Below, one piece after another: positions 4,485 to 49,698 of a DNA stretch of 64,000 bases (position 1 is its first letter; each line of letters begins with the position of its first letter). The notes beneath the pieces are model-generated. The model saw only the letters and a list, made by a program, of their open reading frames with translations, did not search any database and had not been told where the DNA came from. The stretch lies in contig CAZSNL010000002.1 of assembly GCA_964608275.1 (NCBI GenBank), positions 15,088 through 79,087 of the forward strand. Reading direction: 5' to 3'. The stretch comes from an uncultured Hyphomicrobiales bacterium (GTDB lineage: Bacteria; Pseudomonadota; Alphaproteobacteria; Rhizobiales; CAZSNL01). The position numbers and the translations under genes were made by a program.

Positions 4485-5729
4485 TCAGTCTGCCGGGTCG
4501 CGGATGATCGGACAGGTCATGCAGTGGCCGCCGCCACGGCCGCGGCCGAGCTCGGCGCCGGCAATCGTGATGACCTCGATGCCGGCCTTCCGCAGCAGCG
4601 TATTGGTGTAGACGTTGCGATCGTAGGCGAAGACGACGCCGGGCGAGGCGCATACCAGGTTGGCGCCGCTGTCCCATTGGGTGCGTTCGCGCATGTAGTC
4701 GGTGCCGGCGGTCTCCACGACCCGCATCTGCTTCAGCCCGAGCGCGTCGCGCACGGTATCGACGAACGACCCCTCGTCGCGGCGCAGGTCGATGGAACCC
4801 GGCTTGTTGCCCGGACGGTAGGAATACGCGTGGATGCCGTCGACGATGTCCGGATAGACAAGCACGCAGTCGCGGTCGGCGAACGTGAACACGGTGTCGA
4901 GATGCATGGCGGCGCGCAGCCTGGGCATGGCAGCCACGATGACCCGCTCGGCCACACCGCGGTCGAACAGCGCCCTTGCCACCTGGCTGATGGCCTGCCG
5001 CGACGTGCGCTCGCTCATGCCCACCAGCACGACGCCCCTGCCGATCGGCATGACATCGCCGCCCTCGAACGTCGCAAGGCCGTGGTCGACCAGCGGATCG
5101 CCCCACCAGACCTCCACCCTGCCGGCGAAGTCGGGGTGGAACCGGTAGATCGCGGCGGCGAGGATCGTCTCCTCGTGACGGGCCGGCCAGAACAGCGCGT
5201 TGAGGGTGACGCCGCCGTAGATCCAGCATGTCGTGTCGCGGGTATAGAGCGTATTGGGCAGCGGCGGCAGCAGGTACTCGGTGACGCCGGCGGCATCACG
5301 GATCAGGGTCAGCATCTCGCCGCCGACGGATTCGGGAAACTCGACCGTAGAGAGCCCGCCGATCAGCGTTTCGGCGAGGTCGCGGTCGGGCAGGCCGTCG
5401 AGATAGCTGCGCAGCTCGTCAACGAGGCCGAGGCCGACCTGGTCGGGCACCACCTGGTTGTCGAGGATCCATGCCCTGGCTTCCGACACCGCCACCGTCT
5501 CGGCGAGCAGGTTGTGCATCTCGACGACCTCGACGCCGCGGTCGCGCAACTTGGTGACGAAGTCGAAATGGTCACGCCGGGCGACGTCGACCCATAGTAC
5601 GTCGTCGAACAGGAGCGCGTCGCAGTTGCTGGGCGTGAGGCGCTGATGGGCGCGGCCCGGCGCGCACACCATGACCTTGCGCAGCTGGCCGACCTCCGAA
5701 TGAACGCCGTATGCGGATTGCGTAGCCAT
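4485..5729 (-). CDS. arcA: arginine deiminase
   Basis: 414 aa. The N-terminus [18 protein letters not shown] and the C-terminal catalytic-Cys region [15 protein letters not shown] are characteristic of ArcA. Confidence 0.93.
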
Positions 5730-35700: not shown

Positions 35701-35864
35701 TGATCGTCGGCGGCCTCCTCGTCGGTACGTTCTTCACTCTGTTCGTGATCCCGGTGGTCTATACATACTTCTCTCGCAGCACAGCCGACGAGCGGGCCAA
35801 GGAAGCGGAAGAACGGGAGCTTGCAGCCGAACCCGAGACACCGCGACTCAGGGCTGCCGAGTAG
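32766..35864 (+). CDS. RND efflux permease (HAE1/AcrB-MexB type), 1032 aa
   Basis: The N-terminus is ISDVSIRRPVFATVMSLIIVLLG. The TM4 proton-relay region is GLVVDDAIIMLENI. It has the 12-TM architecture with two large periplasmic loops. Confidence 0.95.
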   Translation: MQISDVSIRRPVFATVMSLIIVLLGIVSYQRLTIREYPNIDPPVVTVRTDYKGASSEIIESQVTQVLEDSLAGIEGIDFTQSISRPERSQITLFFDLDREPNAVAADVRDRVGRVRGRLPDEIEEPVIQKVEADAQAIIYLAFSSDRHRTMDITDYADRYVKDRLQTLPGVAEVRIFGERRYSMRLWLDPARLAAYNLTVQDVENALRRQNVEIPAGRIESVKREFTVLSETDLRTPEQFDNLIIREQGGYLVRLKDIGRAELGPTDERRVVRFNGNTSIVLGVVKQATANPLDVSREVRAVLPAIVESLPEGMRVDVAHDKSVFIEESIKNVYATIGEAVVLVVLIIFLFLRSFRATLVPLVTIPVALIGALALMFAFGFSINTLTLLALVLAIGLVVDDAIIMLENIYRHVEGGKRPLEAAFHGAKEIGFAVVSMTLTLAAVYAPIGFMTGTTGRLFTEFAWTLAGAVLVSGFVALSLSPMMCSKLLRHQSHGRLYNFTERGFRAMNTGYRKLLGASLRARPVVLLIGLAVAGSSYFLFDVLKSELAPYEDQGTIVGIFTGPQGATIDYTDQYARQIEEVLKDSPDIERYFVIAGSPVVSQGISFIKLKPWEERDISQQEVAADLQPKFFGIPGVMAFPVNPPPFGQSARDKPIQIVVQTSRPFSELEQMVETVLAKARENRGLTNLDTDLKLNTPQLRVTVDREKAMDVGVDIETLGRTLESMLGGRQVTRFKRQGEQYDVIVQVADVDRSNPSDLERIYVRGRGDQMIQLSNLVRVEETVAPQELNHFNQLRSAIISANLMPGYTLGEGLAFMEDVAREVLPVDAQIDFTGQSREFKEASASIYVTFFLALAFIYLVLSAQFESFVDPFIIMLTVPLSITGGLFALYLSGGTLNIYSQVGLVTLIGLITKHGILIVAFANQLREEGQRKLDAVTEAAVLRLRPILMTTGAMTLGAVPLAMATGAGAESRQDIGWVIVGGLLVGTFFTLFVIPVVYTYFSRSTADERAKEAEERELAAEPETPRLRAAE

Positions 35865-36111
35865 ACACGCGCACCTCCGGCTGGCTGCAACCCCGATATC
35901 GAATACTGTCCGCCCGCCGCTTCGAGGGGCCGCGGGCGTGAAGCTCGACGCGGCGGGGAATCAAGACCGGTTGTCCTCGCCACGGCCACATCCGGCGAGT
36001 AGCATTCATCCGAAGCACGCGGGACGAAGCGCGACGGATTCGATGCCGATCGTGCGTTACACACAGGCGGGAAGCTTAACAGGGGAGCCGCGCAACGGCG
36101 TGGCAGGCGTA

Positions 36112-37551
36112 ATGCTGGACGGGGCGCATGTCAGATCATGCACGCGAAAGCGGCGATCGACCTTCCGTCGTTTCGCCACGGGAACGGTAATCATGGTGTT
36201 CGCCCTTCTGGCATCAGGCTGCGCGACGGTCGAGCTGCCGTCGCCGCTGGCCGGCGACGTACCGGCCGAGTTCTCGCGGTCAGGCGCCGAGCCGTTGCCC
36301 GACCGGTGGTGGCACGGTTTGGATGATGCTCAGCTCGACAGCCTCATTCGCGAGGCGCTTGCCGAGAACCCGTCGTTGAAGGCGACATGGGATCGGCTTG
36401 CCCAGGCAAACGCCATTGCCAGGCGCGAACGGGCGACGCTGTGGCCGACCCTCGACGCCGATGCAAGAGCCAGCCGCACGATCAACTTCGAGGGACCGGA
36501 TTCGGAGCGTTACGAACTCGGCATCGCCGCAGCCTACGAAGTGGATCTGTGGGGCCGGCTTCGGTCGTCTGCGGCGGCAGCCCGTATCGATGCCGAGGCC
36601 AGCCGCGAGGAAGTGCTCGCCGCCGCAATTTCGCTGACCGCCGAGATAGCGAGGACGTGGTACGAACTGATCGAACAACGGGGGCAACTGGCGCTGCTTC
36701 AGCAGCAGATCAAGACCAACGAGCAGATCCTCGAGCTGGTGGACCTGCGGTTCCGCCAGGGTCAGACGGTCGCCGCCGACGTGCTGCGCCAGCGGCAGCT
36801 GGTCGAGCAGCGGCGCGGCGAAATTCACGACGTGCGCTCACGCATCGCAGTGCTCGAGCATCAACTGGCGATCCTGTTGGGCAGAGCACCGAAGTCACTC
36901 CAGGTGGCAGACCGGCAGACTATGGGCAACCTGCCGCCACTGCCGGCGACGGGACTTCCCGCCGACCTTATCCGACGGCGCCCCGACGTTCGGCGCGCCT
37001 TTCACGATATCCATGCAGCGAGCGCGCGGGTGGCGGCAGCGATCGCCGACCGGTATCCGCGGATCGACCTTGCCGCCAGCCTGACCAGCGCCGCAACCTC
37101 TCCCGGAGACATCTTCTCGAACTGGCTGGCGACGCTGATGGCCCAGCTCATGGCGCCGATCATCGACGGCGGCGCCCGGCGAGCGGAAGTAGAGCGGACC
37201 GAGGCCGTGCTTGCGGAACGCGTGCACCTATATGAGGAAACGGTGCTTGCGGCATTGAAGGAGGTCGAGGATGCACTCGAACGCGAACGCCGGCAGCATG
37301 AAAAGGTCGCGAGCCTCAGGCGTCAGCTCGAGATTGCCGACGAAGTCGTCGAACGGCTGCGCGCCCGCTATACACAGGGTGCAGCAAACTACCTGGACGT
37401 GCTTGAAGCATTGACAACGCAGCAGAACCTGCAAAGCAACCTGCTCACCGCCCGACGCGACCTCTACTTCTTCCGCATCGATCTTGCCCGCGCACTGGCC
37501 GGCGGGTGGACGATGAACCAGCCCGAACCGCTGTTGCTCGTCAGAACGTGA
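36112..37551 (+). CDS. RND efflux outer-membrane factor lipoprotein (NodT/OprM family)
   Basis: The lipobox is VFALLASG|C. NodT-type repeats follow (WWHGLDDAQLDSLIREALAENPSL ... YDLFGR-like EVDLWGRLRS). The start is uncertain: ATG 36112 gives a 37-aa leader. Sequence upstream of it has poor GC3 and looks non-coding. Confidence 0.82.
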   Translation: MLDGAHVRSCTRKRRSTFRRFATGTVIMVFALLASGCATVELPSPLAGDVPAEFSRSGAEPLPDRWWHGLDDAQLDSLIREALAENPSLKATWDRLAQANAIARRERATLWPTLDADARASRTINFEGPDSERYELGIAAAYEVDLWGRLRSSAAAARIDAEASREEVLAAAISLTAEIARTWYELIEQRGQLALLQQQIKTNEQILELVDLRFRQGQTVAADVLRQRQLVEQRRGEIHDVRSRIAVLEHQLAILLGRAPKSLQVADRQTMGNLPPLPATGLPADLIRRRPDVRRAFHDIHAASARVAAAIADRYPRIDLAASLTSAATSPGDIFSNWLATLMAQLMAPIIDGGARRAEVERTEAVLAERVHLYEETVLAALKEVEDALERERRQHEKVASLRRQLEIADEVVERLRARYTQGAANYLDVLEALTTQQNLQSNLLTARRDLYFFRIDLARALAGGWTMNQPEPLLLVRT

Positions 37552-37559
37552 CCGATCCA

Positions 37560-38819
37560 ATGCCGCACGATCCGGGCAATTCCCCTCTCACGACCCGCCT
37601 TCTCCGTGGTTTCCGGCTGCTGATCAAACTGGTGCTTCCGATCGCGGTCCTGGCCGTTGCGGGGGGTGTCGCAGTCTACATGATGGAGACACAACCGCGA
37701 GCCGAGCGGGCACCAAAGCCGCGCGAGGCACGCCTCGTCGAGGTGATCGAGGTGAGCCCTTCGCAACATAACGTCCGCATCGAGGCCTGGGGCACGGTGA
37801 TTCCGAGCAGGGAGGTAAGCATCGTGCCGCAAGTCAGCGGTGCGGTCGTGGAAGTAAGCCCTGCCCTCGTACCGGGTGGCCGGTTCAAGGAGGGCGACCT
37901 GCTCCTGCGCATCGACCCAAGCGACTACGAACTCGCCGTCGAGCAACGCAGGAGTGGTCTCGCGGAGGCGGAAGCCGAGCTCGCCATGGAGCTCGGCAAC
38001 CAGGCAGTTGCCCGCAGAGAGTACGAGCTGCTCGGGCGCGAGACCACCGAGCAGGAGCGTTCGCTGATACTGCGACAGCCGCAGCTCGCAACGGTTGAAG
38101 CGAAAGTCGCGGCAGCGCGGGCAGCGCTTGCCGAGGCAGAACTCGCACTCGAACGAACGCGTATCGTCGCGCCCTTTGATGCCCTGGTCATTTCGGAATC
38201 CGTCGAGGTGGGTTCGCGGGTTTCGGCTTCCTCGCAGAGCGCCGTGGCTTCGCTGGTGGGAACCGACAGCTACTGGGTCGAACTCGCCGTGCCGGCGAGC
38301 GATCTCAAGTGGATCGAGCTACCTGGCCCCGACCGTGCGGGATCGACGGTGCTCCTGTACCAGGATGCCGTGTGGCCGGCAGGGGTGTACCGTGAGGGCC
38401 GGGTATTCCGTCTGCTCGGGGATCTCGCTCAGACCGGGCGCATGGCGAGATTGCTGGTGGAAGTCGAGGACCCGCTCGCATTGGAGCCCGAGAATGATGG
38501 CAAACCCAGGCTCCTCATCGGCGCTTACCTGCGGGCCGAAATCGCCGGCCGCGCCTTGCCGGATACCGTGAAGGTCGACCGCCGCTTTCTCCGTGACGGC
38601 GATCGCGTCTGGCTGATGGACGCCAATGACCGGTTGGAGATCCGCGCGGTGGAGATTGCCTATCGGGGACCGCAAGACGTGCTCGTGTCCGAAGGGCTCG
38701 ACGCCGGGGACCGGATAGTGACGACGGACATCGCCGTTGCCGTGGAAGGGATGCCGCTGCGACTTGCCACTGATACGCGTGGGCGCACCGCAGGACACGC
38801 CGGAGCGGAATCCCAATGA
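37560..38819 (+). CDS. second RND efflux periplasmic adaptor (MFP) subunit
   Basis: It has an N-terminal TM anchor (LLIKLVLPIAVLAVAGGVAVYM) and adaptor blocks (IVPQVSGAVVEV...GGRFKEGDLLLRIDPSDYELAV, RIVAPFDALV). A GTG at 37548, overlapping the OMF stop, is an alternative start. Confidence 0.85.
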   Translation: MPHDPGNSPLTTRLLRGFRLLIKLVLPIAVLAVAGGVAVYMMETQPRAERAPKPREARLVEVIEVSPSQHNVRIEAWGTVIPSREVSIVPQVSGAVVEVSPALVPGGRFKEGDLLLRIDPSDYELAVEQRRSGLAEAEAELAMELGNQAVARREYELLGRETTEQERSLILRQPQLATVEAKVAAARAALAEAELALERTRIVAPFDALVISESVEVGSRVSASSQSAVASLVGTDSYWVELAVPASDLKWIELPGPDRAGSTVLLYQDAVWPAGVYREGRVFRLLGDLAQTGRMARLLVEVEDPLALEPENDGKPRLLIGAYLRAEIAGRALPDTVKVDRRFLRDGDRVWLMDANDRLEIRAVEIAYRGPQDVLVSEGLDAGDRIVTTDIAVAVEGMPLRLATDTRGRTAGHAGAESQ

Positions 38820-41800
38820 ACGCATCCGATCGAGCAGAGCGCGGTGCAATCGCGTGGTTCACCCGTCACAGGGTGGGGCCAAACCTGCTCATGCTCGTCC
38901 TAATCCTCGGCGGCCTTTTCACCGCGCTCCAGATCAAGCAGGAGGTATTCCCGGAGTTCGAACGTGACACCGTGACCGTTTCGGTAGCATTGCCCGGTGC
39001 AAGCCCCGAAGAGGTGGAGCGGGGCATAATCCTTGCCATCGAGGAAGAACTGCGCAGCGTCGATGGCGTGAAGGAGATCAGCGCCACTGCAAACGAGGGC
39101 TCCGGCCGGGTCGTTGCCGAACTCCAGTCGGGCGGCGACCACGACAGGATCTTCCAGGACATTCAACAGGCCGTCAGCCGTATCACGACCTTTCCTGACG
39201 ATGCGGAGAGGCCCCGGATCACGCTCGATTCCAGGCGCCGGGGCGTGCTTGACCTGCAGCTCTTCGGAGACGTCGACGAGTGGGCACTCCGTGAGGCCGC
39301 GGAAGTTGCGCGCGACCGGCTGCTGGCGGAACCCGGGATCACCCAGGTCGAGCTTGAAGGTGCGAGGGATTTCGAAATTCACATCGAAATCCCGCAGGAG
39401 CGTCTCCGCGCGTACGGGCTGACACTGGATTCCGTCGCCTCGACAATCCGCGAGGCAGCACTCGACCGCGGCGGCGGCTCGATACGGACCGAGGCCGGAG
39501 AGATCCTCCTCCGGGTCCAGGAGCGCCGCGACTGGGCTCGGGAATTCGCCCAGATCCCGCTGATAGCCGGCGCCGGCGGGGCCCTCGTCCGACTTGGTGA
39601 CGTGGCGGATGTCTCGGAAGGCTTTGCCGACAGCCACAGACTGGCGAGCTTCAACGGCAAGCGGGCGATCGGGATCGCGGTTTACCGCGTCGGTGACGAG
39701 ACGCCAGTCAGCGTGTCGAACGCGGTTCGCACGGCCCTGCCCGACATTGTCGCTGCACTGCCGCCATCGATCGAACTCACGATCGAGGACGACGACTCCG
39801 AAGTCTACATGCAGCGGCTCGAACTCCTTCTCAAGAACGGCTTCTTCGGGCTGCTGCTCGTCCTCGGTATCCTGACACTGTTTCTGGAATTCAGGCTCGC
39901 CTTCTGGGTTACCGCAGGCATACCAACAGCATTCCTCGGCGCCCTTCTGTTCCTCCCGGTCTTCGACATATCGATCAACATGATGTCGCTGTTTGCGTTC
40001 ATCGTGGCGCTCGGCATCATCGTCGACGATGCGATCATCGTGGGCGAGAACATCTACGAGTACCGTCAGCGGGGACTGAGCAATCTTGAGGCGGCCATCA
40101 GGGGGGCGAAAGACCTCGCAGTCCCGGTCGTCTTTGCGATCGTCACAAACATCGTGGCGTTTCTGCCGCTGATGTTCATTCCCGGCACGTTCGGCAAGAT
40201 CTGGTCAGCAATTCCACTGGTGACCGGTGTTGCCTTCACCTTTTCGCTGATCGAGGCGCTGTTCATCCTGCCCGCCCATCTGGGCCATAATCGCGGGCGG
40301 CCTGCTGGCGGCATGCGCGTGCGCCTATTTGCCTGGCAACAGGCCTTCTCGTCGTGGTTCCAGCGCATGGTCGAGACCGTCTACGGACCGTTCCTGCGGA
40401 TGACGATGCGGTGGCGTTACCTCACCATGTCGGCGATGCTGGCGCTGCTCATCGTGACACTGGCGCTGCCGATGAGCGGCCGCATGGGTTTCATCCTGAT
40501 GCCGACGGTCGAAAGCGATTTCGCCCAGGCCAGTGCTACGCTGCCAGTTGGCAGCCCGATCGAGCAGGCCATCACGGTCCGGGACCGGCTGGTCGATTCC
40601 GTCTCGGCGGTGATCGCGGCAAATGGTGGAGAGGCACTCAGTACCGGGATCTTCTCGTCTGTCAACGAGAACAGCGTTACCGTTCGGGCGTACCTGAAAC
40701 CCCCAGGCGAACGACCCCTGTCCACCGGCGAGGTGACGCGGTTATGGCGCGAGCAAACCGGTGAAATTGCTGGATTGGAGATGCTTCGGTTCGCTGCCGA
40801 TGCGCGTGGCCCCGGCAGCGGTGCATCAGTCAGCGTCGAATTGCGCCACCGCGACATTCCCACGCTGGAACGTGCGGCCACGGAGCTTGCCGACCGCCTC
40901 GAGGAATTTGCCAACGTAAACGACGTCGATGACGGCCATACGCCGGGCAAGGTCCAGCTCGACATCCGTACCACCGAAGAAGCCCGCAGCCTCGGCCTCA
41001 GTTCGGCGGAGATCGCCCGCCAGGTGCGCGCAGCATTCCATGGCGTCGAAGCGATAAAGCAGCAACGTGGCCGCAACGAAATCACGGTCAGGGTCCGGCT
41101 CCCCGATCACGAGCGGCGAAGCGAGGCAGACATCGAGAACCTCATCCTGCGCACCCCCGACGGTGGCGAAGTGCCGCTGTTCCAGGTGGCAACCGTCGAG
41201 CGCGGCCGCGCCTACACAAGCATCAGCCGCCGGGACGGGCGCCGCGCAGTGACCGTCAGCGCGAACGTCTATCCCCAGAGCGAGACAAGCCGCATTCTCG
41301 ACAGCCTTTCGCGTGAGGTCCTGCCGCAATTGTCTGCCGATCACCCCGGCCTGTCCTGGTCGTTCGAAGGCCGTCAGGCGTTCATGCGCGACGCCATCGA
41401 AAGCTTCTTCCATTCGGTGACGCTGGCGTTGCTCGCGATATATGCGCTGCTCGCCATTCCGTTCCGCAGCTATGTACAGCCGGCGATCGTCATGACGGCA
41501 ATTCCATTTGGCGTGGTGGGCGCCATTATGGGTCACCTGATCATGGGCTACAGCCTCTCGGTCGTCTCGGTCATGGGGATCATTGCGCTTGGCGGGGTGG
41601 TCATCAACGCGGCGCTGGTGATGATCGATTATGCAAACGATCGTCGAAAACGGGGATCGGCTGCGTTCGAGGCCATTCACGAGGCAGGCATTCGCCGGTT
41701 CCGGCCGATCATGCTGACCACGCTCACGACGTTCGGCGGACTTGCGCCGATGATCTTCGAAACATCCCGCCAGGCCCGGTTCCTGATTCCCATGGCCCTG

Positions 41801-41995
41801 TCGCTCGGCTACGGAATTCTGTTCGCGTCGGCGATCGTCCTGGTGCTCATTCCGAGCCTCTACATGATCATCGAGGACTTGAAGCACCTTGCCGCGAAGA
41901 TCACCGCAGCCCTTTCGGGACAGCCTCCCGCCCCAGTCCCGAGCGGCGCCGCACGGCGTGGTACGGGTGAACCGGAGCGGATCGCGGCGGAGTAG
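38816..41995 (+). CDS. second RND efflux permease (AcrB/AcrD/AcrF family), 1059 aa
   Basis: The start overlaps the MFP stop by 4 nt. It begins IAWFTRHRVGPNLLMLVLILGG. The TM4 region is GIIVDDAIIVGENI, and the architecture is 12-TM. Confidence 0.93.
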   Translation: MNASDRAERGAIAWFTRHRVGPNLLMLVLILGGLFTALQIKQEVFPEFERDTVTVSVALPGASPEEVERGIILAIEEELRSVDGVKEISATANEGSGRVVAELQSGGDHDRIFQDIQQAVSRITTFPDDAERPRITLDSRRRGVLDLQLFGDVDEWALREAAEVARDRLLAEPGITQVELEGARDFEIHIEIPQERLRAYGLTLDSVASTIREAALDRGGGSIRTEAGEILLRVQERRDWAREFAQIPLIAGAGGALVRLGDVADVSEGFADSHRLASFNGKRAIGIAVYRVGDETPVSVSNAVRTALPDIVAALPPSIELTIEDDDSEVYMQRLELLLKNGFFGLLLVLGILTLFLEFRLAFWVTAGIPTAFLGALLFLPVFDISINMMSLFAFIVALGIIVDDAIIVGENIYEYRQRGLSNLEAAIRGAKDLAVPVVFAIVTNIVAFLPLMFIPGTFGKIWSAIPLVTGVAFTFSLIEALFILPAHLGHNRGRPAGGMRVRLFAWQQAFSSWFQRMVETVYGPFLRMTMRWRYLTMSAMLALLIVTLALPMSGRMGFILMPTVESDFAQASATLPVGSPIEQAITVRDRLVDSVSAVIAANGGEALSTGIFSSVNENSVTVRAYLKPPGERPLSTGEVTRLWREQTGEIAGLEMLRFAADARGPGSGASVSVELRHRDIPTLERAATELADRLEEFANVNDVDDGHTPGKVQLDIRTTEEARSLGLSSAEIARQVRAAFHGVEAIKQQRGRNEITVRVRLPDHERRSEADIENLILRTPDGGEVPLFQVATVERGRAYTSISRRDGRRAVTVSANVYPQSETSRILDSLSREVLPQLSADHPGLSWSFEGRQAFMRDAIESFFHSVTLALLAIYALLAIPFRSYVQPAIVMTAIPFGVVGAIMGHLIMGYSLSVVSVMGIIALGGVVINAALVMIDYANDRRKRGSAAFEAIHEAGIRRFRPIMLTTLTTFGGLAPMIFETSRQARFLIPMALSLGYGILFASAIVLVLIPSLYMIIEDLKHLAAKITAALSGQPPAPVPSGAARRGTGEPERIAAE

Positions 41996-43290: not shown

Positions 43291-45060
43291 ATGTGCGGTT
43301 TATGCGGTGAAGTCCGGTTCGACGGCGGTCCCGCCGATGTAGCGTCGATTGCCCGCATGATGCAGACCCTTGAACCGCGAGGGCCCGACGCAGCCGGAGC
43401 GATCGTACAGACGAACGCCGCCCTCGGACATCGCCGCCTGAAGATCATCGACCTTTCCGACCGGTCCCAACAGCCGATGATCGATCCCGACCTTGGTCTT
43501 ACGGTCTCATTCAACGGCTGCATCTACAACTACAGGGAACTGCGACAGGAACTGCAGACACTCGGCTACCGGTTCTTTTCCGACGGTGACACCGAGGTTC
43601 TGCTCAAGGCTTGGCACGCCTGGGGCCAGGAAGCCCCGAAACGCTTCAACGGCATGTTCGCCTTTGCCATCGTGGAGCGCGATTCCGGCCGCCTTGTCCT
43701 CGGTCGCGACCGGCTCGGCATCAAGCCGCTGTACTACGCCGAAACCGAAAGCGGCATCCGGTTCGCGTCCGCTCTTCCGGCATTGATCGCCGCCGGCGCA
43801 AGCAGCGAAATCGACCCGGTCGCCCTGCACTACTACATGACCTTTCACGCCGTGGTGCCGCCGCCCCGAACCATTCTTGCCGGCGTCCGCAAGCTCCCGC
43901 CGGCAACCGTTGCCATCTTCGAGGCGGACGGGGACCGACGAGACCACGTCTACTGGTCACTGTCCTACGATCGCAGCAAGGCGGATCTCGAAGCAGATGC
44001 GGACCGCTGGGAAGCGGAAGTCCATGCGAATCTCGACGCCGCCGTCAGGCGACGCATGATCGCCGACGTGCCGGTCGGTGTTCTCCTGTCGGGTGGTGTC
44101 GATTCGAGCCTCATCGTTGCACTGCTCGCGGGGGCAGGGCAGCGACACCTCAAGACCTTCTCGATCGGCTTCGAGTCCGCGAACGGCGAGCGCGGCGACG
44201 AGTTCACCTATTCCGACATCGTCGCCCGACATTTCGATACCGAGCATCACCAGATCTTCGTCCGATCGCGGCGGCTGATCGATGCGCTCCCGAAAACCGT
44301 CCTCGCGATGTCCGAGCCGATGGTCTCCTACGACAATGTCGGCTTCTTCCTGTTGTCCGAAGAAGTGTCGAAGCACGTCAAGGTGGTCCAGAGCGGCCAG
44401 GGCGCCGACGAGATCTTCGGCGGCTATCACTGGTATCCGCCGCTGATGGACTCAAACGACCCGGCCGCCGACTACGCCCGTGTCTTCTTCGACCGCGACC
44501 ACGAAGAATACGGCGAGGCCGTGAACGACAGGCTGGTGACGAAGGACCACAGCACGGCCTTCGTCATGGAGCATTTTGCCATGCCCGGCGCAGATCGTGC
44601 TGTCGACAAGGCCCTGCGGATCGATTCCACAGTCATGCTGGTGGATGACCCGGTCAAACGGGTGGACAACATGACCATGGCCTGGGGCCTGGAGGCACGC
44701 GTGCCGTTTCTCGATCACGAACTTGTCGAACTGGCCGCGCGCATCCCACCGGAGCACAAGCTGCGAAACGGCGGCAAAGGCGTACTCAAGGACGTCGCCC
44801 GCAAGATGGTGCCGGAGGCGGTGATCGACCGCCCCAAGGGCTATTTCCCGGTGCCCGCGCTCAAACACATCCAGGGCCCCTATCTCGATATCGTACGCGA
44901 TCTGCTGACGAGCCGGCGCGCGCGGGAACGGGGGCTGTTCAAACCCGAGTACGTGGCGAGGCTGATCGACGAGCCCACGGAGAATTTCACGCCGCTTAGA
45001 GGCTCCAAGTTATGGCAGGTCGCCCTGCTCGAGTTCTGGTTGCAGGAGCACGGTATCTGA
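43291..45060 (+). CDS. asnO: N-acetylglutaminylglutamine amidotransferase (asparagine synthetase family, class II Gln amidotransferase)
   Basis: The N-terminal nucleophile is MCGLCG. The AsnB-type synthetase PP-loop is VGVLLSGGVDSS. It is the first gene of the conserved amidotransferase/GNAT-ATP-grasp/M42 trio. Confidence 0.85.
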   Translation: MCGLCGEVRFDGGPADVASIARMMQTLEPRGPDAAGAIVQTNAALGHRRLKIIDLSDRSQQPMIDPDLGLTVSFNGCIYNYRELRQELQTLGYRFFSDGDTEVLLKAWHAWGQEAPKRFNGMFAFAIVERDSGRLVLGRDRLGIKPLYYAETESGIRFASALPALIAAGASSEIDPVALHYYMTFHAVVPPPRTILAGVRKLPPATVAIFEADGDRRDHVYWSLSYDRSKADLEADADRWEAEVHANLDAAVRRRMIADVPVGVLLSGGVDSSLIVALLAGAGQRHLKTFSIGFESANGERGDEFTYSDIVARHFDTEHHQIFVRSRRLIDALPKTVLAMSEPMVSYDNVGFFLLSEEVSKHVKVVQSGQGADEIFGGYHWYPPLMDSNDPAADYARVFFDRDHEEYGEAVNDRLVTKDHSTAFVMEHFAMPGADRAVDKALRIDSTVMLVDDPVKRVDNMTMAWGLEARVPFLDHELVELAARIPPEHKLRNGGKGVLKDVARKMVPEAVIDRPKGYFPVPALKHIQGPYLDIVRDLLTSRRARERGLFKPEYVARLIDEPTENFTPLRGSKLWQVALLEFWLQEHGI

Positions 45061-45062
45061 CG

Positions 45063-46826
45063 ATGGCGCTACCCAAGGACAAGCAAACCGACACCGTCTT
45101 CGGCGACATCGAGGGCCTCAGTTCGCTGAAGCACTGGGGCGAACCGCCAACAGAACCGCCGCACCCAGCCGTGTGGGTCGACTGTGGATGGGGAAGGCTC
45201 CTGTTCGGCCAGACGTTCCTGAGCGCCGCCGCGCTGGCCGAAGCCCTCCTTAAGGAACGGGAAAACGAGCGCGACATTGCCTTCTACGTACGCGAACCGC
45301 ACGTCGTCCTGGCGCAGGCTCCCCAGGCACTGTTCCTCGATCCCTCGAACACCTTCAGGCTCGAACTCAAATCGAAAGACACCGACACGTCAGCAGGCGA
45401 CATCGAGGTGGTCGAGGCTGTCGAGGGAGACGAAGCCGAGATCAACCGACTTTACGCGTCCCGGGGAATGGTGCCGCTGCGGCAAGGCTATCTGGTCGAA
45501 CAGCCGGAGCGGGATGCTGTCAGCGTTCTGGTCGTACGCGACGAGACCCGCCGGAACGGCCTTGAAGGCGTGGTGATGGGAGTCGACCACCTTCGTGCCT
45601 TCGATGATCCCGACAACGGTGCAAGTCTGTGGGCGCTCGCCGTCGATCCGCAAGCCCGACGCCCGGGCATCGGACAGGCATTGGTGATCGCTCTCGCCGA
45701 CCGCTTCGCCGAGCGCGGTCGCAGCTTCATGGACCTGTCGGTAATGCACAACAACGAACAGGCCATTGCGCTGTACGACAAGCTCGGTTTCAGGCAGGTA
45801 CCGGTCTACTGCGTCAAGACCCGCACCACCATCAACCAGAACCTGTTCATCGGCCCGCCTCCCGAAGAACGCCTCAACATCTATGCCAAGCTTATCGTCG
45901 ACGAGGCGCGACGGCGCGGAATATCGGTGGAGATCGACGATGCGGAAGCGGGGATGTTCACGCTTAGCCACGGCGCACGTTCGGTGAGCTGTCGCGAGTC
46001 CCTCAGCGATCGCACCACGGCGATAGCGATGAGCCGCTGTGACGACAAGGCACTTACGCGACGCATCCTTGAACGCGCGGGCCTGCGCGTGACAGAGCAG
46101 GCAGATATCGCCGACGAGGAGGAGGCAGTGACATTCCTCGAAAAGCACAAGCGAATTGTCGTCAAGCCCGCCCGCGGCGAGCAGGGTCACGGCGTCCGGG
46201 TCGACCTTACCGCGCCCGACGCCGTACGTGCGGCCTACCGGGCAGCCGCCGCCATCTGCGATCGCGTCATTGCAGAGAAGTTCGTCGCCGGCGAGGACCT
46301 GCGGGTCATTGTCATCGATGGCGAGGTGGTGGCCGCGGCCGTACGGCGCCCGGCAGCGGTAATGGGCGACGGTACACATGCCATCATCGAGCTGATCGAC
46401 AAGCAGAGCCGGCGTCGGGCGGCGGCGACCGGCGGCGAAAGTCGGATTCCCCTCGATACGGAAACCGAGCGCTGCGTGCGGGCGTCGGGGCACAACATGA
46501 CCGATGTTCTCCCCTGCGGCGAGACGCTGCGGGTACGGAAGACGGCCAACCTGCACACCGGTGGCACCATCCACGATGTGACTGACGATCTGCACCCTGA
46601 GCTGGCAGCCGCGTGCCTTGCCGCTGCGGACGCTCTGGACATTCCGGTGGTCGGACTGGACCTTATCGTCGAGGCGGTCAACCGCCCGGATTACACCTTG
46701 ATCGAGGCCAATGAACGTCCGGGCCTCGCCAACCACGAGCCGCGACCGACGGCGGAACGATTCGTGGACTTCCTGTTCCCCGAGACAAGGGCCGACCTCC
46801 TGCCGGGAAGGGTGTCCAGACGATGA
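45063..46826 (+). CDS. ngg: N-acetylglutaminylglutamine synthetase (GNAT acetyltransferase + ATP-grasp ligase fusion)
   Basis: The GNAT block is LWALAVDPQARRPGIGQALVIALADRFAERGRSFMDLSVMHNNEQAIALYDKLGF. An ATP-grasp half follows (DKALTRRILERAGLRV..., VVKPARGEQGHGVRVDL, NLHTGGTIHDVT, EANERPGL). Confidence 0.85.
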   Translation: MALPKDKQTDTVFGDIEGLSSLKHWGEPPTEPPHPAVWVDCGWGRLLFGQTFLSAAALAEALLKERENERDIAFYVREPHVVLAQAPQALFLDPSNTFRLELKSKDTDTSAGDIEVVEAVEGDEAEINRLYASRGMVPLRQGYLVEQPERDAVSVLVVRDETRRNGLEGVVMGVDHLRAFDDPDNGASLWALAVDPQARRPGIGQALVIALADRFAERGRSFMDLSVMHNNEQAIALYDKLGFRQVPVYCVKTRTTINQNLFIGPPPEERLNIYAKLIVDEARRRGISVEIDDAEAGMFTLSHGARSVSCRESLSDRTTAIAMSRCDDKALTRRILERAGLRVTEQADIADEEEAVTFLEKHKRIVVKPARGEQGHGVRVDLTAPDAVRAAYRAAAAICDRVIAEKFVAGEDLRVIVIDGEVVAAAVRRPAAVMGDGTHAIIELIDKQSRRRAAATGGESRIPLDTETERCVRASGHNMTDVLPCGETLRVRKTANLHTGGTIHDVTDDLHPELAAACLAAADALDIPVVGLDLIVEAVNRPDYTLIEANERPGLANHEPRPTAERFVDFLFPETRADLLPGRVSRR

Positions 46827-47971
46827 AGAAGGTGGCGATCGATCGCGAGTACCTTCTAGAGACGCTCCGCCAACTCCTGGACATTCCGAGCCCCACAGGC
46901 ATGACCGATGCCGCGGTGGCATATGTATCGAAGGAACTGGAACGTCTCGGCATCGAACACGAGTTCACCCGCAGGGGCGCAATCCGCGCCGATCTGAAAG
47001 GCGAACGAGGCAGCCCCGATCGGGCGATCGTCGCCCACCTCGATACGCTCGGCGCCATGGTCAAGGGCATACGCGACACCGGCCGGCTGGAGGTGGTGCC
47101 AATCGGCAACTGGTCTGCCCGGTTTGCCGAAGGCGCCCGCTGTACCGTCTTCAGCGATGGCGGCAAACGGTTTCGTGGCAGCATTCTGCCCTTGAAGGCC
47201 TCGGGACACACCTTTGGCTCGGAAGTCGACACGCAGCCCGCCTCCTGGGGTAATCTGGAGCTGCGGCTGGACGAGCGTGTCCAGAGCGACGACGATACCG
47301 GCGCCCTTGGCGTCAATGTAGGCGATACGATCGCCATTGATCCCGGTACCGAGGTGCTTGACAACGGGTTCATCTGTTCCCGGCATCTGGACGACAAGGC
47401 TGGGGTTGCGGTCGTTCTTGCAGCGGCAAAGGCTGTCCAAGAAAGCGCCGTCAAGCTGCCGATGGATTGCCATCTCCTGTTCACAATCTCGGAAGAGGTC
47501 GGCGTTGGCGCCTCACATGTCCTGCATGGCGACGTTGCCGAACTGGTTGCCGTCGACAACGGGACACTGGCGCCGGGGCAGAACACCAGCGAGTACGGCG
47601 TGACCATCGCCATGCAGGATTCCAGCGGGCCGTTCGACTGGCACCTCACGCACAGCCTGATCAGCCTCTGCCAGTCACACGGCATTGCTCATGAGCGAGA
47701 CGTGTTTCGCTACTACCGGAGCGATGGCGCAGCCGCCCTCGAAGCCGGCAATGACATCCGTGCAGCCCTGGTGTGCTTCGGGCTGGACAGTTCCCATGGC
47801 TGGGAGCGCACCCACATCGACTCTCTCTGTGCACTGAGCCGGCTTCTGGTCGCATACATGCGTTCGAAACCGCTGTTCGAGCGCGATGTCGAGGCACTCG
47901 GACCGGTGGGCGACCTCCCGCCATCGGAAGAGGCGCCGATGTCGGACGACTCGTCAGCCCCTGAACGGTAG
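46823..47971 (+). CDS. NAGGN-system M42-family peptidase/hydrolase
   Basis: The start overlaps the ngg stop by 4 nt. M42 features are present: LLDIPSPTGMT, AIVAHLDTLGAMV, SRHLDDKAGVAV, FTISEEVG. It is the third member of the trio. Confidence 0.85.
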   Translation: MKKVAIDREYLLETLRQLLDIPSPTGMTDAAVAYVSKELERLGIEHEFTRRGAIRADLKGERGSPDRAIVAHLDTLGAMVKGIRDTGRLEVVPIGNWSARFAEGARCTVFSDGGKRFRGSILPLKASGHTFGSEVDTQPASWGNLELRLDERVQSDDDTGALGVNVGDTIAIDPGTEVLDNGFICSRHLDDKAGVAVVLAAAKAVQESAVKLPMDCHLLFTISEEVGVGASHVLHGDVAELVAVDNGTLAPGQNTSEYGVTIAMQDSSGPFDWHLTHSLISLCQSHGIAHERDVFRYYRSDGAAALEAGNDIRAALVCFGLDSSHGWERTHIDSLCALSRLLVAYMRSKPLFERDVEALGPVGDLPPSEEAPMSDDSSAPER

Positions 47972-48436
47972 ATCCCGGCTACCGGCATTCTTGTGCCTGC
48001 CCGTATCCTTGGGCGGCAGTGGGTGCACCGGTTCGGGATAGAACACCCATTCGCCTTCGGCACTGTTCGTCGGTGTCTCCCGTTTCATGCGAAGTCCGCG
48101 CTCTTCCTGCTCGGCCTGCTGCGCCGCCTCGTGCAGCTGCCGCGCCTGATCCATCGTCCATGGCAGCTGGTAGGCAACAGGCTGCTCGCGCTGTACCCAT
48201 AGATATATCGCACGCCCCTCATCGAGCTCGTAGGCGAGTACCTGCAGATCGTCCCATGACGCGAGCATCTCGTGCGTGGCGGGCCTCGGCGTACCCATCA
48301 ACGCGACTCCGGCAGCCCAGGCGCCTATACCGAACAGTGCGACGAGGACAGGCGCATCCCACGCATTCAACCGCCACCAGAGGTAGACACCAATCACCAC
48401 CAGCGTCAAAGCCACGACCGATGAAAGCAGCATCAT
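47954..48436 (-). CDS. hypothetical membrane protein (2 TM + soluble helical/Pro-rich tail), third gene of the TolQ/TolR-like operon
   Basis: ATG 48436 overlaps the upstream stop (ATGA). The TM segments are LLSSVVALTLVVIGVYLWW and VLVALFGIGAWAAGVALMG. A soluble region follows, with QARQLHEAAQQAEQEERGL and YPEPVHPLPPKD. The 3' end overlaps the convergent M42 gene by 18 nt. Confidence 0.55.
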   Translation of the reverse strand: MMLLSSVVALTLVVIGVYLWWRLNAWDAPVLVALFGIGAWAAGVALMGTPRPATHEMLASWDDLQVLAYELDEGRAIYLWVQREQPVAYQLPWTMDQARQLHEAAQQAEQEERGLRMKRETPTNSAEGEWVFYPEPVHPLPPKDTGRHKNAGSRDLPFRG

Positions 48437-49020
48437 GACTGTGAATGCCTCAGGCTGACAGGAACGGTATGCTTGGAGCCGGGAACTAGCTTCCCGTTGC
48501 GGAGCGCGAAGCGAATGACGGTGATCTCGTCACCGATGCGGGCGATATCGGTGCGGCCCTGATAAATGATCGTCGCATCATTGGGACTTTCGCCACGCGC
48601 GGTCACCTGCACATCGACGGGCACCGCGAGCTCGCAACCGCCGCGGTGGGTATAGAGGTGGAGATTGACGATGTACTCACCGTCGGGGAGGCCGCGGGTA
48701 TAGGCGTTCTCGTAGTTCAGATCGGAAAGATCCCCCTGGTGACCGAGGTCGTCACGCAGGAGATTGAACAACATGTCGGATTGATTGGAGTAGCCCACGG
48801 CCCGTCCCACCGGACCTTGAACCCAGAGGTCGACATCGGTGTGGCATTCGGGCGGCCATATCGTTTCGACGACCAGCGATCCCGGCGGGCGAAGTTGTTC
48901 CGCGGCCTTGGGCGGGTTGACCAGCGGCAACAGGACGACCACCAGGATCAGCAGGATGTCCAGAAACGTGATCTGCCAACTGTCCCGGTCTACGCCAGGT
49001 GGCGTGTCAGGCGCAGCCAT
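48433..49020 (-). CDS. TolR/ExbD/MotB-type single-pass anchor (Asp in TM) fused to a non-canonical beta-rich periplasmic domain
   Basis: Start ATG 49020 follows GGGGG and gives 195 aa. The TM segment WQITFLDILLILVVVLLPLV resembles the ExbD/TolR helix (xxLLDVxLVLLIFF) with its conserved Asp. The remainder (TDVDLWVQGPVGRAVGYSN...NYENAYTRGLPDGEYIVNLHLY) is not ExbD- or OmpA-like. The longer tracked ORF (to 49188) would run antisense-frame through the upstream gene. Confidence 0.55.
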   Translation of the reverse strand: MAAPDTPPGVDRDSWQITFLDILLILVVVLLPLVNPPKAAEQLRPPGSLVVETIWPPECHTDVDLWVQGPVGRAVGYSNQSDMLFNLLRDDLGHQGDLSDLNYENAYTRGLPDGEYIVNLHLYTHRGGCELAVPVDVQVTARGESPNDATIIYQGRTDIARIGDEITVIRFALRNGKLVPGSKHTVPVSLRHSQS

Positions 49021-49621: not shown

Positions 49622-49698
49622 GCAGCTGTAGCTCAGTTGGTTAGAGCGCCTGATTGTGGATCAGGAGGTCGCTGGTTCGAATCCAGCCAGCTGTACCA
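49622..49698 (+). tRNA. tRNA-His (anticodon GTG), no encoded G-1, G1:U72, A73, encoded CCA
   Basis: The cloverleaf was folded by hand. Acceptor is GCAGCTG/CAGCTGT, D arm GCTC-AGTTGGTTA-GAGC, and anticodon arm CCTGA-TTGTGGA-TCAGG. The variable region is AGGTC, the T arm is GCTGG-TTCGAAT-CCAGC, and the 3' end is A-CCA. Total length is 77 nt. Confidence 0.93.

Follow-up and report, generated by a model that had tools for sequence, protein, structure and literature searches.

The question raised by this locus is whether a bacterial gene could join the membrane anchor of an ExbD/TolR-type motor subunit to a periplasmic beta-sandwich of the YfaP kind, and, if so, what such a protein would work with. 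The gene, here called B, lies in a stretch of 64,000 nt from an uncultured Hyphomicrobiales bacterium (assembly GCA_964608275.1, contig CAZSNL010000002.1, positions 15,088 to 79,087), and 'the window' below refers to this whole stretch, in whose own numbering its positions are given. The original prediction had described B as an ExbD/TolR-type anchor fused to a domain resembling DUF2135/YfaP. B is the middle gene of a three-gene cassette, A-B-C, which that prediction did not include, and it is probable that B serves as the 'axle' subunit of an undescribed three-component inner-membrane complex within the MotAB/ExbBD/TolQR superfamily, best read as an ExbBD-like complex that is driven by protons and has its output in the periplasm.

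The cassette consists of three overlapping genes on one strand, in the order A-B-C and with no other constant neighbour. In the window, the 5' end of B overlaps the 3' end of A by 31 nt and the stop codon of B overlaps the start of C (ATGA). In a first set of 85 loci, 80 of them from GTDB species genomes and the rest from Azospirillum and metagenome contigs, iterative searches located A homologues in 84 loci and C homologues in 82, always as A-B-C and with typical overlaps of -14 and -4 nt; where A or C was missing, the gap fell at the end of a contig. Upon clustering of the flanking open reading frames (ORFs), only the three cassette genes recurred (in 82, 79 and 79 of ~82 non-redundant loci), the next real neighbour being present in 18. 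Relatives of B are present in at least 583 confirmed species genomes, mostly of Alphaproteobacteria (Geminicoccaceae, Rhodospirillales, Kiloniellales, Azospirillum) with some Gammaproteobacteria, and the cellular cassettes with a long A sit amid housekeeping genes. Some genomes hold two copies of the trio, either on one contig (L036 and L041 on CAVSVZ010000002.1, ~7 kb apart) or within the same metagenome-assembled genome (L025/L085 and L031/L057), and in one locus (L075, 4965-6801) a second, longer B-like ORF of 295 aa directly follows the first cassette, and further A-like ORFs lie downstream of it.

Subunit A matches the Pfam family MotA_ExbB (PF01618) with an E-value of 1.4e-5 and 25.3 bits, the gathering score being 22.9. 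Its third transmembrane (TM) helix carries the motif G-L-F-G-T74-V-V-G and its fourth A-x-x-T102-T103-x-x-G; across cellular and viral homologues, G70, G73 and T74 are conserved at 96-100% and T102/T103 and G106 at 72-100%. The cytoplasmic loop between TM2 and TM3, ~70 residues long in cellular copies, is cut to ~17 residues in the window, and phage copies likewise have almost none of it. Taken from envelope coordinates as TM1 to TM4, the A core of cellular genomes has a median length of 178 aa (75 of 81 within 170-190) and that of IMG/VR contigs one of 135 aa; the core amounts to 125-132 aa in cultured phages, 112-117 aa in compact metagenome relatives and ~115-120 aa in the window. Window A is the shortest A subunit among the copies compared, with its cytoplasmic loop deleted.

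The translation of B opens with MAAPDTPPGVDRDSWQITFLDILLILVVVLLPLVNPP (minus strand of 48433-49020), its ATG at 49020 agrees with the public gene call (P0001, 100% identical, 195 aa, 36 contigs), and the peptide strings quoted earlier for this gene are all found verbatim in the 195-aa product. An AlphaFold2 model built with the homologue alignment (predicted local distance difference test, pLDDT, 89.3; predicted TM-score 0.77) places a helix at residues 12-34, a linker of ~13 residues and eight strands across residues 48-174, with pLDDT up to 97 in the helix and mostly above 90 in the sandwich. The helix reads ITFLDILLILVVVLL, the corresponding segments of Escherichia coli ExbD and TolR being VTPFIDVMLVLLIIF and IVPLLDVLLVLLLIF, and its Asp aligns in register with ExbD D25 (hhalign E 0.014) and TolR D23 (E 0.023), E-values that are weak because only ~18-40 residues are aligned. 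This Asp, D21, stands in an F-x-D-hydrophobic context, is nearly invariant in an alignment of 38 B homologues and is kept in 81 of 82 cellular homologues, the sole exception being a truncated ORF; viral homologues missed by a strict regular expression retain it by inspection (FRDLLMN, FLDLLFN, FIDLLFN, LDALFNF). The tail preceding the helix is acidic, as it is in ExbD. From these sequences we conclude that the B helix is in all probability a retained, functional TM segment of the ExbD/TolR type, and the anchor proposed in the original prediction is thereby borne out, with its conserved Asp in register and a MotA_ExbB-family gene overlapping B upstream.

The resemblance to ExbD and TolR is confined to this anchor. 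Neither window B nor the 38 relatives matched the ExbD/TolR domain PF02472 at E<=10, the modelled domain being an all-beta sandwich, and no OmpA-family Pfam match was found for any of them, nor any amphipathic plug helix in the B model. The missing OmpA-like and ExbD-domain matches, together with the very short tether, are consistent with a B subunit that would not bind peptidoglycan. The first strand of the B-family sandwich, VEIRWPD (B residues 48-56, window 48853-48879), was paired by hhalign with VEVDLPD of TolR (~42-48), the first periplasmic strand after its TM helix; this likeness may be a remnant of common ancestry, or chance.

The B family is large and unannotated. A word-indexed search with B returned more than 519 homologues of ~180-220 aa, all unnamed and all lacking Pfam domains, and a HMMER scan of 1.84 billion representatives identified 2009 B clusters at 50% identity with E<=1e-3, 1472 of them at E<=1e-10; among the best 150 of the 2009, nearly all were 170-260 aa long and matched almost the whole profile. 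Residues P46, G47, W55, D62-V-D-L-W66, P70, N86-L-L-R-D-D91, G93, N102, E104, R109, G114, Y116, E165 and T167 were invariant across the 38 aligned homologues, and W55, D62, D64, D90, D91, G93, E104, R109, G114 and Y116 were 100% conserved in a set of 82 cellular and 76 viral homologues. Window B had no match in Pfam, NCBIfam, PADLOC, PHROG or the PDB sequences; searches of PDB sequences with B, C and YfaP, as single sequences and as profiles, yielded nothing significant; and a search of BFVD returned only uncharacterised viral proteins. One homologue (P0074) bears the UniRef title 'EF-hand domain-containing protein', and weak EF-hand Pfam matches occur in 2 of the 38 relatives (E 0.04-0.4). 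An EF-hand identity for the family was considered and rejected, these being judged probably a pattern match in the acidic N-tail.

The DUF2135/YfaP pattern given in the original prediction was accurate, E. coli YfaP reading LSWDTDNTDLDLHVVTPDGEHAWYGN...LDMDVTTGYGPEIF...GRYQVYINYYGG, and the likeness of B to this domain extends over its full length. When the B sandwich (residues 43-173) was aligned by hhalign with the entire C-terminal domain of YfaP, an E-value of 3.2e-5 and a probability of 73% were obtained over 119 columns, rising with larger alignments to 9.6e-6 and 83% over 120 columns, and the AlphaFold2 model of a YfaP-family protein showed the same strand order in its C-terminal domain as the B model. 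Shared features include a W, TD-x-DL-x-V, P-x-G, Y-x-N, a D-x-D / E cluster and G-x-Y-x-V-x-x-x-Y. A family hidden Markov model (HMM) built from 262 members recovered at least 23 of 57 YfaP-family sequences at E<1e-3, with scores of up to 22.5 bits, and sub-threshold matches to PF09906 (DUF2135) occurred in 9 of the 38 B relatives, the best at E 5e-4. The two proteins differ in their surroundings. YfaP is a secreted protein whose signal peptide, MRKIFLPLLLVALSPVAHSEG, is of the ordinary kind; it has a further domain on its N-terminal side and belongs to an alpha-2-macroglobulin operon (yfaQ-yfaS-yfaT-yfaA in E. coli), whereas B is anchored by an ExbD-like helix in a motor operon, and no yfaS-type (alpha-2-macroglobulin) neighbour was present in ~160 B-family loci. 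We regard homology of the B sandwich to the YfaP C-terminal domain as very likely; the earlier assignment to a DUF2135/YfaP-like domain thus holds in the profile-profile alignment over the whole sandwich and in the strand order, and does not extend to formal membership of the Pfam family. The acidic cluster of B (D62, D64, D90, D91, E104) is invariant and is shared with the TDxDL, DxD and E of YfaP. In a Foldseek search of the PDB the B model came closest to 2lge, a calcium-bound Parabacteroides protein of unknown function (E 6e-3, TM-score 0.33-0.44), and with this neighbour in view the cluster probably binds Ca2+.

Subunit C has a conserved domain of ~100 residues (…EATVLG…IYLWLQ…EPRAYxLPW…) and a Pro-rich tail, FYAxPQPxLPPKD, in proteins of ~140-200 aa; the tail of the window copy, likewise Pro-rich, ends in ...FYPEPVHPLPPKD. 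No match for C was found in Pfam (TonB_C and TolA included), NCBIfam, PADLOC, PHROG or the PDB, and a homologue search with window C recovered only 2 proteins, because this copy is divergent. The distribution of charge (K+R 0.03 and D+E 0.53 before TM1, 2.18 and 0.10 in the 9-residue loop, and 1.78 and 1.62, net ~0, after TM2) favours a topology with the N terminus out, the loop in and the C terminus out, which would place the C-terminal domain of C, probably, in the periplasm.

The cassette is also carried by phages. Searching cultured phage genomes with tblastn revealed B homologues in 17 records, among them p040 of the temperate Rhizobium phage 16-3 (46% identity to B over residues 35-186) and homologues in the lytic Rhizobium phages RHph_N34, I46, I1_9, N3_19 and I1_18, T4-like RHph phages included. 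In the cultured-phage loci the B gene is flanked by A-sized and C-sized genes, the trio of 16-3 being p038/p040/p042, and the family HMMs detected B in 4/4, C in 3/4 and A in 2/4 of four such loci; the A proteins of RHph_N34, N3_19 and I1_18 scored above the Pfam MotA_ExbB threshold and p038 of 16-3 below it. A scan of IMG/VR recovered 70 viral contigs of up to 328 kb with a B relative, where A, B and C stand in this order wherever the contig permits (69, 69 and 66 of 70). Two relatives close to window B lie among structural genes, P0004 (52% identity) adjoining a T4-type portal and tail-tube gene and P0007 (51% identity) adjoining sheath, large terminase, gp15 and neck genes, and a GH108 endolysin gene is found two genes away from P0106. 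No PHROG match was obtained for A, B or C, cultured phages included.

Several further genes were observed beside the viral trios. An HtrA-like periplasmic serine protease (Trypsin_2, in some cases with PDZ) directly precedes A or directly follows C in 21 of the 76 loci of viral or phage origin, for example at L092 3181-4080, ~590 nt after B in L138-L157, and before A in L099, L104, L106, L111, L112 and L116; this recurrence suggests a functional link with the trio in viral loci, not in cellular ones. One viral lineage (L138-L161) repeatedly has, ~480-770 nt upstream of B, a gene for a secreted protein of the DUF992 family (PF06186, E 7e-47); clustering places it in 14 loci, 13 of them with coordinates relative to B (e.g. 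L152 2611-3066). Phage 16-3 additionally has two small ORFs, p039 between A and B (L092 4642-4932) and p041 between B and C (5462-5647), the former encoding a protein of 96 aa rich in Trp and acidic residues and the latter a 61-aa protein with two TM helices; neither has a family match.

The window copy itself belongs with the compact forms. Window B lacks a 7-residue helix insertion found in the cellular forms, and a neighbour-joining tree groups it with P0003, L089, P0007, P0005 and L091, a compact set that includes phage contexts. Its nearest relative, P0003 (63% identity, with an A of 120 aa), occurs in two unrelated chromosomal contexts, neither like the window (loci L166 and L167, one with P450 and HWE kinases and one with topoisomerase IB), which suggests that the compact trio moves as a unit. 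The neighbourhood in the window is ordinary chromosome, with an M42 peptidase, a RimK-type ligase, an asparagine synthase, an ABC transporter of the Liv type and an RND efflux operon. The window cassette is read as a mobile, phage-type accessory version now resident in a bacterial chromosome. It lies 270 nt from a divergent tRNA-His gene, on the 5' side of that gene, which is not the usual position for an island and is the wrong side for classical 3'-end integration.

A mechanism can be proposed by analogy with the solved MotAB, ExbBD and TolQR structures, in which an A5B2 assembly passes protons through an Asp/Thr pathway (PMC9389320). Two B helices would sit inside a pentamer of A, and protons passing via the B Asp and the A Thr would make the two subunits rotate against each other or cycle between conformations. 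Since A can dispense with its cytoplasmic loop, the output is placed on the periplasmic rather than the cytoplasmic side, as the anatomy of the subunits would have it. On its ~13-residue tether, the B sandwich would be held too near the membrane to reach the peptidoglycan or cell wall, and most likely docks onto the periplasmic domain of C, which would be the moved or gated element, in the third-gene position that TonB and TolA hold beside ExbBD and TolQR. The leading guess for the role of the trio is an envelope-acting function, which a phage might supply so that the envelope of the infected host is kept intact or manipulated. A broader proposition, to which we give slightly less than even credence, is that tailed phages of Alpha- and Gammaproteobacteria, 16-3 and the T4-like rhizobiophages among them, encode a minimal ion-driven motor of the 5:2 type for envelope work that draws its energy from the proton motive force (PMF), of which the window copy would be a chromosomal capture; its parts would be an A of ~115-150 aa, an Asp-TM B with a calcium-binding sandwich and a C with two TM helices, joined in about a quarter of the phage loci by the HtrA-like protease.

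A number of observations weigh against this picture of the trio and its B subunit. Window B was not matched by PF09906 at E<=10 (gathering score 22 bits), because that model is short, its 48 positions covering residues 199-244 of YfaP, the last third of the domain only; E. coli YfaP itself scores 66.4 bits. The hhalign probability of 73-83% is below 95%, Foldseek found no match for the B model in the PDB at E<=1e-3, a significant solved homologue thus being absent, and the structure search with the YfaP-family model was uninformative, returning generic tandem sandwiches with 3u6g as the sole entry in common with the list for B. The TM likeness to ExbD and TolR, taken alone, is weak (E 0.014-0.023). 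In C, the TM helices of 19 aligned proteins share no invariant His; transducers of the TonB/TolA type are reported to bind their motor via a conserved His of the SHLS type (PMC12204202), and the analogy of C with them therefore comes from gene position. Calcium binding and the contact between B and C are inferred from anatomy, and assembly, rotation and proton conduction by A, B and C by analogy with the solved motors, with the stoichiometry assumed. A prophage or island origin of the window locus was considered as well; no phage genes flank the cassette and no deviation in GC content was seen at the locus, the 'phage-type' label coming from subunit size and the neighbour-joining tree.

The first alternative that these points invite is that the YfaP likeness is convergent or generic, and that B carries another calcium-binding sandwich of the pre-peptidase-C-terminal or jelly-roll kind. 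The missing PF09906 match and the modest hhalign probability would suit it, as would a weak match that the YfaP profile makes, by way of a string similar to 'W..DLDLYLYDPNG', with the beta domain at the C terminus of a subtilisin-like protease, and the generic sandwiches that Foldseek returns from the PDB for B and YfaP models alike, but an alignment of 119-120 columns over the whole domain with all motifs in the same order and equal strand order, the recovery of YfaP sequences by the family HMM and the independent contact of 9 of 38 relatives with PF09906 make it unlikely.

Homology to YfaP being preferred on this evidence, the next alternatives concern what the trio does. A conflict system, acting either in phage superinfection exclusion or as a Zorya-like anti-phage sensor of envelope breach, is to be doubted to a similar degree. 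Carriage by both temperate and lytic phages, the two chromosomal contexts of P0003, the several copies per genome, the variable neighbourhoods, the weak PADLOC match of A to ZorA (E 0.016) and the position of the 16-3 trio just right of the immX immunity region are what such a system might show. However, PADLOC has no match for B or C, no ZorC/D-like effector is present and no nuclease or other effector recurs beside the trio, the cellular long-A form lies amid housekeeping genes and is very widely conserved, and the trio occurs in strictly lytic T4-like phages amid early and replication genes. It is more improbable still that A and B, in place of a motor that transduces force, make up a regulated leak for protons (a timer like a holin or antiholin, or a PMF dissipator) with the sandwich as a periplasmic plug: the short tether does hold the sandwich right above the channel mouth, where MotB has its plug, A is almost devoid of a cytoplasmic part and one phage-context copy is two genes from an endolysin, but most phage loci have the trio outside the lysis module, cellular genomes conserve it in housekeeping contexts, and the strictly kept C and the surface acidic cluster suggest partner binding. 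Least probable by far is a B with a cleaved signal peptide, soluble in the periplasm like YfaP, which is itself secreted in that manner, and next to a MotA-like gene by chance, since the helix sequence, Asp included, is conserved in essentially all homologues, unlike that of signal peptides, window B has no A-x-A cleavage site downstream of the helix (…LVNPPKAAEQ), the N-tail is acidic and ExbD-like, and A and B are linked, with overlapping ends, in almost every one of ~160 loci. The preferred reading remains that of a proton-driven complex in which B would act through C on the periplasmic side.

Coordinates of the A-B-C cassette, of the elements of B and of the adjacent tRNA gene, in window numbering
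Feature	Position (nt)	Strand	Description or basis
Subunit A, 120 aa	48990..49352	-	4-TM MotA/ExbB/TolQ family, compact; PF01618
Subunit B, 195 aa	48433..49020	-	Acidic cytoplasmic N-tail, Asp-bearing TM helix, short linker, YfaP/DUF2135-like beta-sandwich (predicted)
TM helix of B, residues ~14-34	48919..48981	-	AlphaFold2 helix 12-34, conserved Asp
Asp21 codon (GAC) of B	48958-48960	-	Read from the window letters
Beta-sandwich of B, residues 48-174, eight strands	48499..48879	-	AlphaFold2 model and hhalign to YfaP domain
D62-V-D-L-W66 motif of B	48823-48837	-	Within beta-sandwich
N86-L-L-R-D-D91 motif of B	48748-48765	-	Within beta-sandwich
G114-E-Y...H-L-Y123 motif of B	48652-48681	-	Within beta-sandwich
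Subunit C, 160 aa	47954..48436	-	Two N-terminal TM helices, ~100-residue domain, Pro-rich tail; conserved after B
tRNA-His (GTG)	49622..49698	+	ARAGORN; 270 nt upstream of cassette, divergent

Among the neighbouring genes, positions 45012-47971, convergent with the cassette, encode a 604-aa fusion of an acetyltransferase with a RimK/ATP-grasp ligase and the M42 peptidase, with the asparagine synthase gene before them, and the same neighbours are seen in loci L002-L004. The RND efflux operon at 35821-41995 is complete and ordinary-looking, comprising an outer-membrane factor, a periplasmic adaptor and a 1059-aa RND pump, and lies upstream of genes for a DoxX protein and a MarR-like regulator.

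The 5:2 proton motors (MotAB, ExbBD, TolQR, GldLM, ZorAB) each provide a distinct route by which inner-membrane energy reaches the envelope. To these, the trio would add a new head on the B subunit, the YfaP-like sandwich on its very short tether, and a new obligatory partner, C, and its A of 120 aa bears on how little of MotA/ExbB is required. The orphan DUF2135/YfaP domain would gain its first mechanistic context; the literature search found no paper mentioning 'DUF2135', and papers on YfaP were uninformative. Widespread as the trio is, B and C are absent from Pfam, NCBIfam, PADLOC and the PHROGs, and no protein family, PHROG, defence model or paper covering either was found; literature searches on phage-encoded ExbB/ExbD likewise gave nothing relevant. 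If the phage-motor proposition is true, the phage trio would rank as the first member of the MotAB/ExbBD superfamily to be encoded by a virus, and as the smallest one known. What the trio powers is a directly testable question, given its occurrence in Azospirillum and in phages that are cultured and genetically tractable, namely 16-3 (on Sinorhizobium meliloti) and the RHph phages (on Rhizobium etli/phaseoli).

In comparison with known systems, the trio would function most like ExbBD-TonB and TolQR-TolA, with which it shares the gene order of an A subunit, a B subunit and a third membrane-anchored gene. Subunit A resembles ExbB and TolQ in its MotA_ExbB match, the GxxGT of its penultimate TM helix and the Thr of its last, but its four TM helices follow a MotA-like topology, and the window copy is left with almost no cytoplasmic domain. 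Subunit B shares with ExbD and TolR the acidic N-tail, the single TM helix, an Asp at equal depth (FLDILLIL against FIDVMLVL and LLDVLLVL) and a presumed periplasmic output, but its periplasmic part is a YfaP-like beta-sandwich rather than an alpha/beta domain, and unlike MotB it lacks an OmpA-like domain. Subunit C departs from TonB and TolA in that it has two TM helices and lacks both a conserved His motif and a domain of the TonB_C or TolA kind. GldL-GldM and PorL-PorM also form a motor of the 5:2 type whose B-like subunit has beta-rich periplasmic domains and no peptidoglycan-binding domain (PMC9389320); GldM, unlike B, spans the periplasm with four domains and has a TM helix without the ExbD-type Asp, and no sequence or Foldseek match linked B to GldM or PorM. 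Zorya ZorA-ZorB is comparable as a non-flagellar MotAB relative tied to phage-host conflict, and A matches ZorA weakly in PADLOC and NCBIfam over the TM3-TM4 core, with no PADLOC match for B or C, but the trio lacks the long cytoplasmic tail of ZorA, the peptidoglycan-binding domain of ZorB and the ZorC/D effectors, no fourth conserved gene was found in the cellular loci, and phages themselves encode it. According to a 2025 survey of MotAB relatives, the B subunits of 'generic ion transporters' are heterogeneous; a beta-sandwich B subunit is not mentioned there (PMC12505986). As the trio lacks an ExbD periplasmic domain and the marks of TonB/TolA, and is neither MotB-like nor a Zorya or GldLM system, it is classed as a new family in the 5:2-motor superfamily, whose unusual points are its carriage by phages and its near-minimal A subunit.

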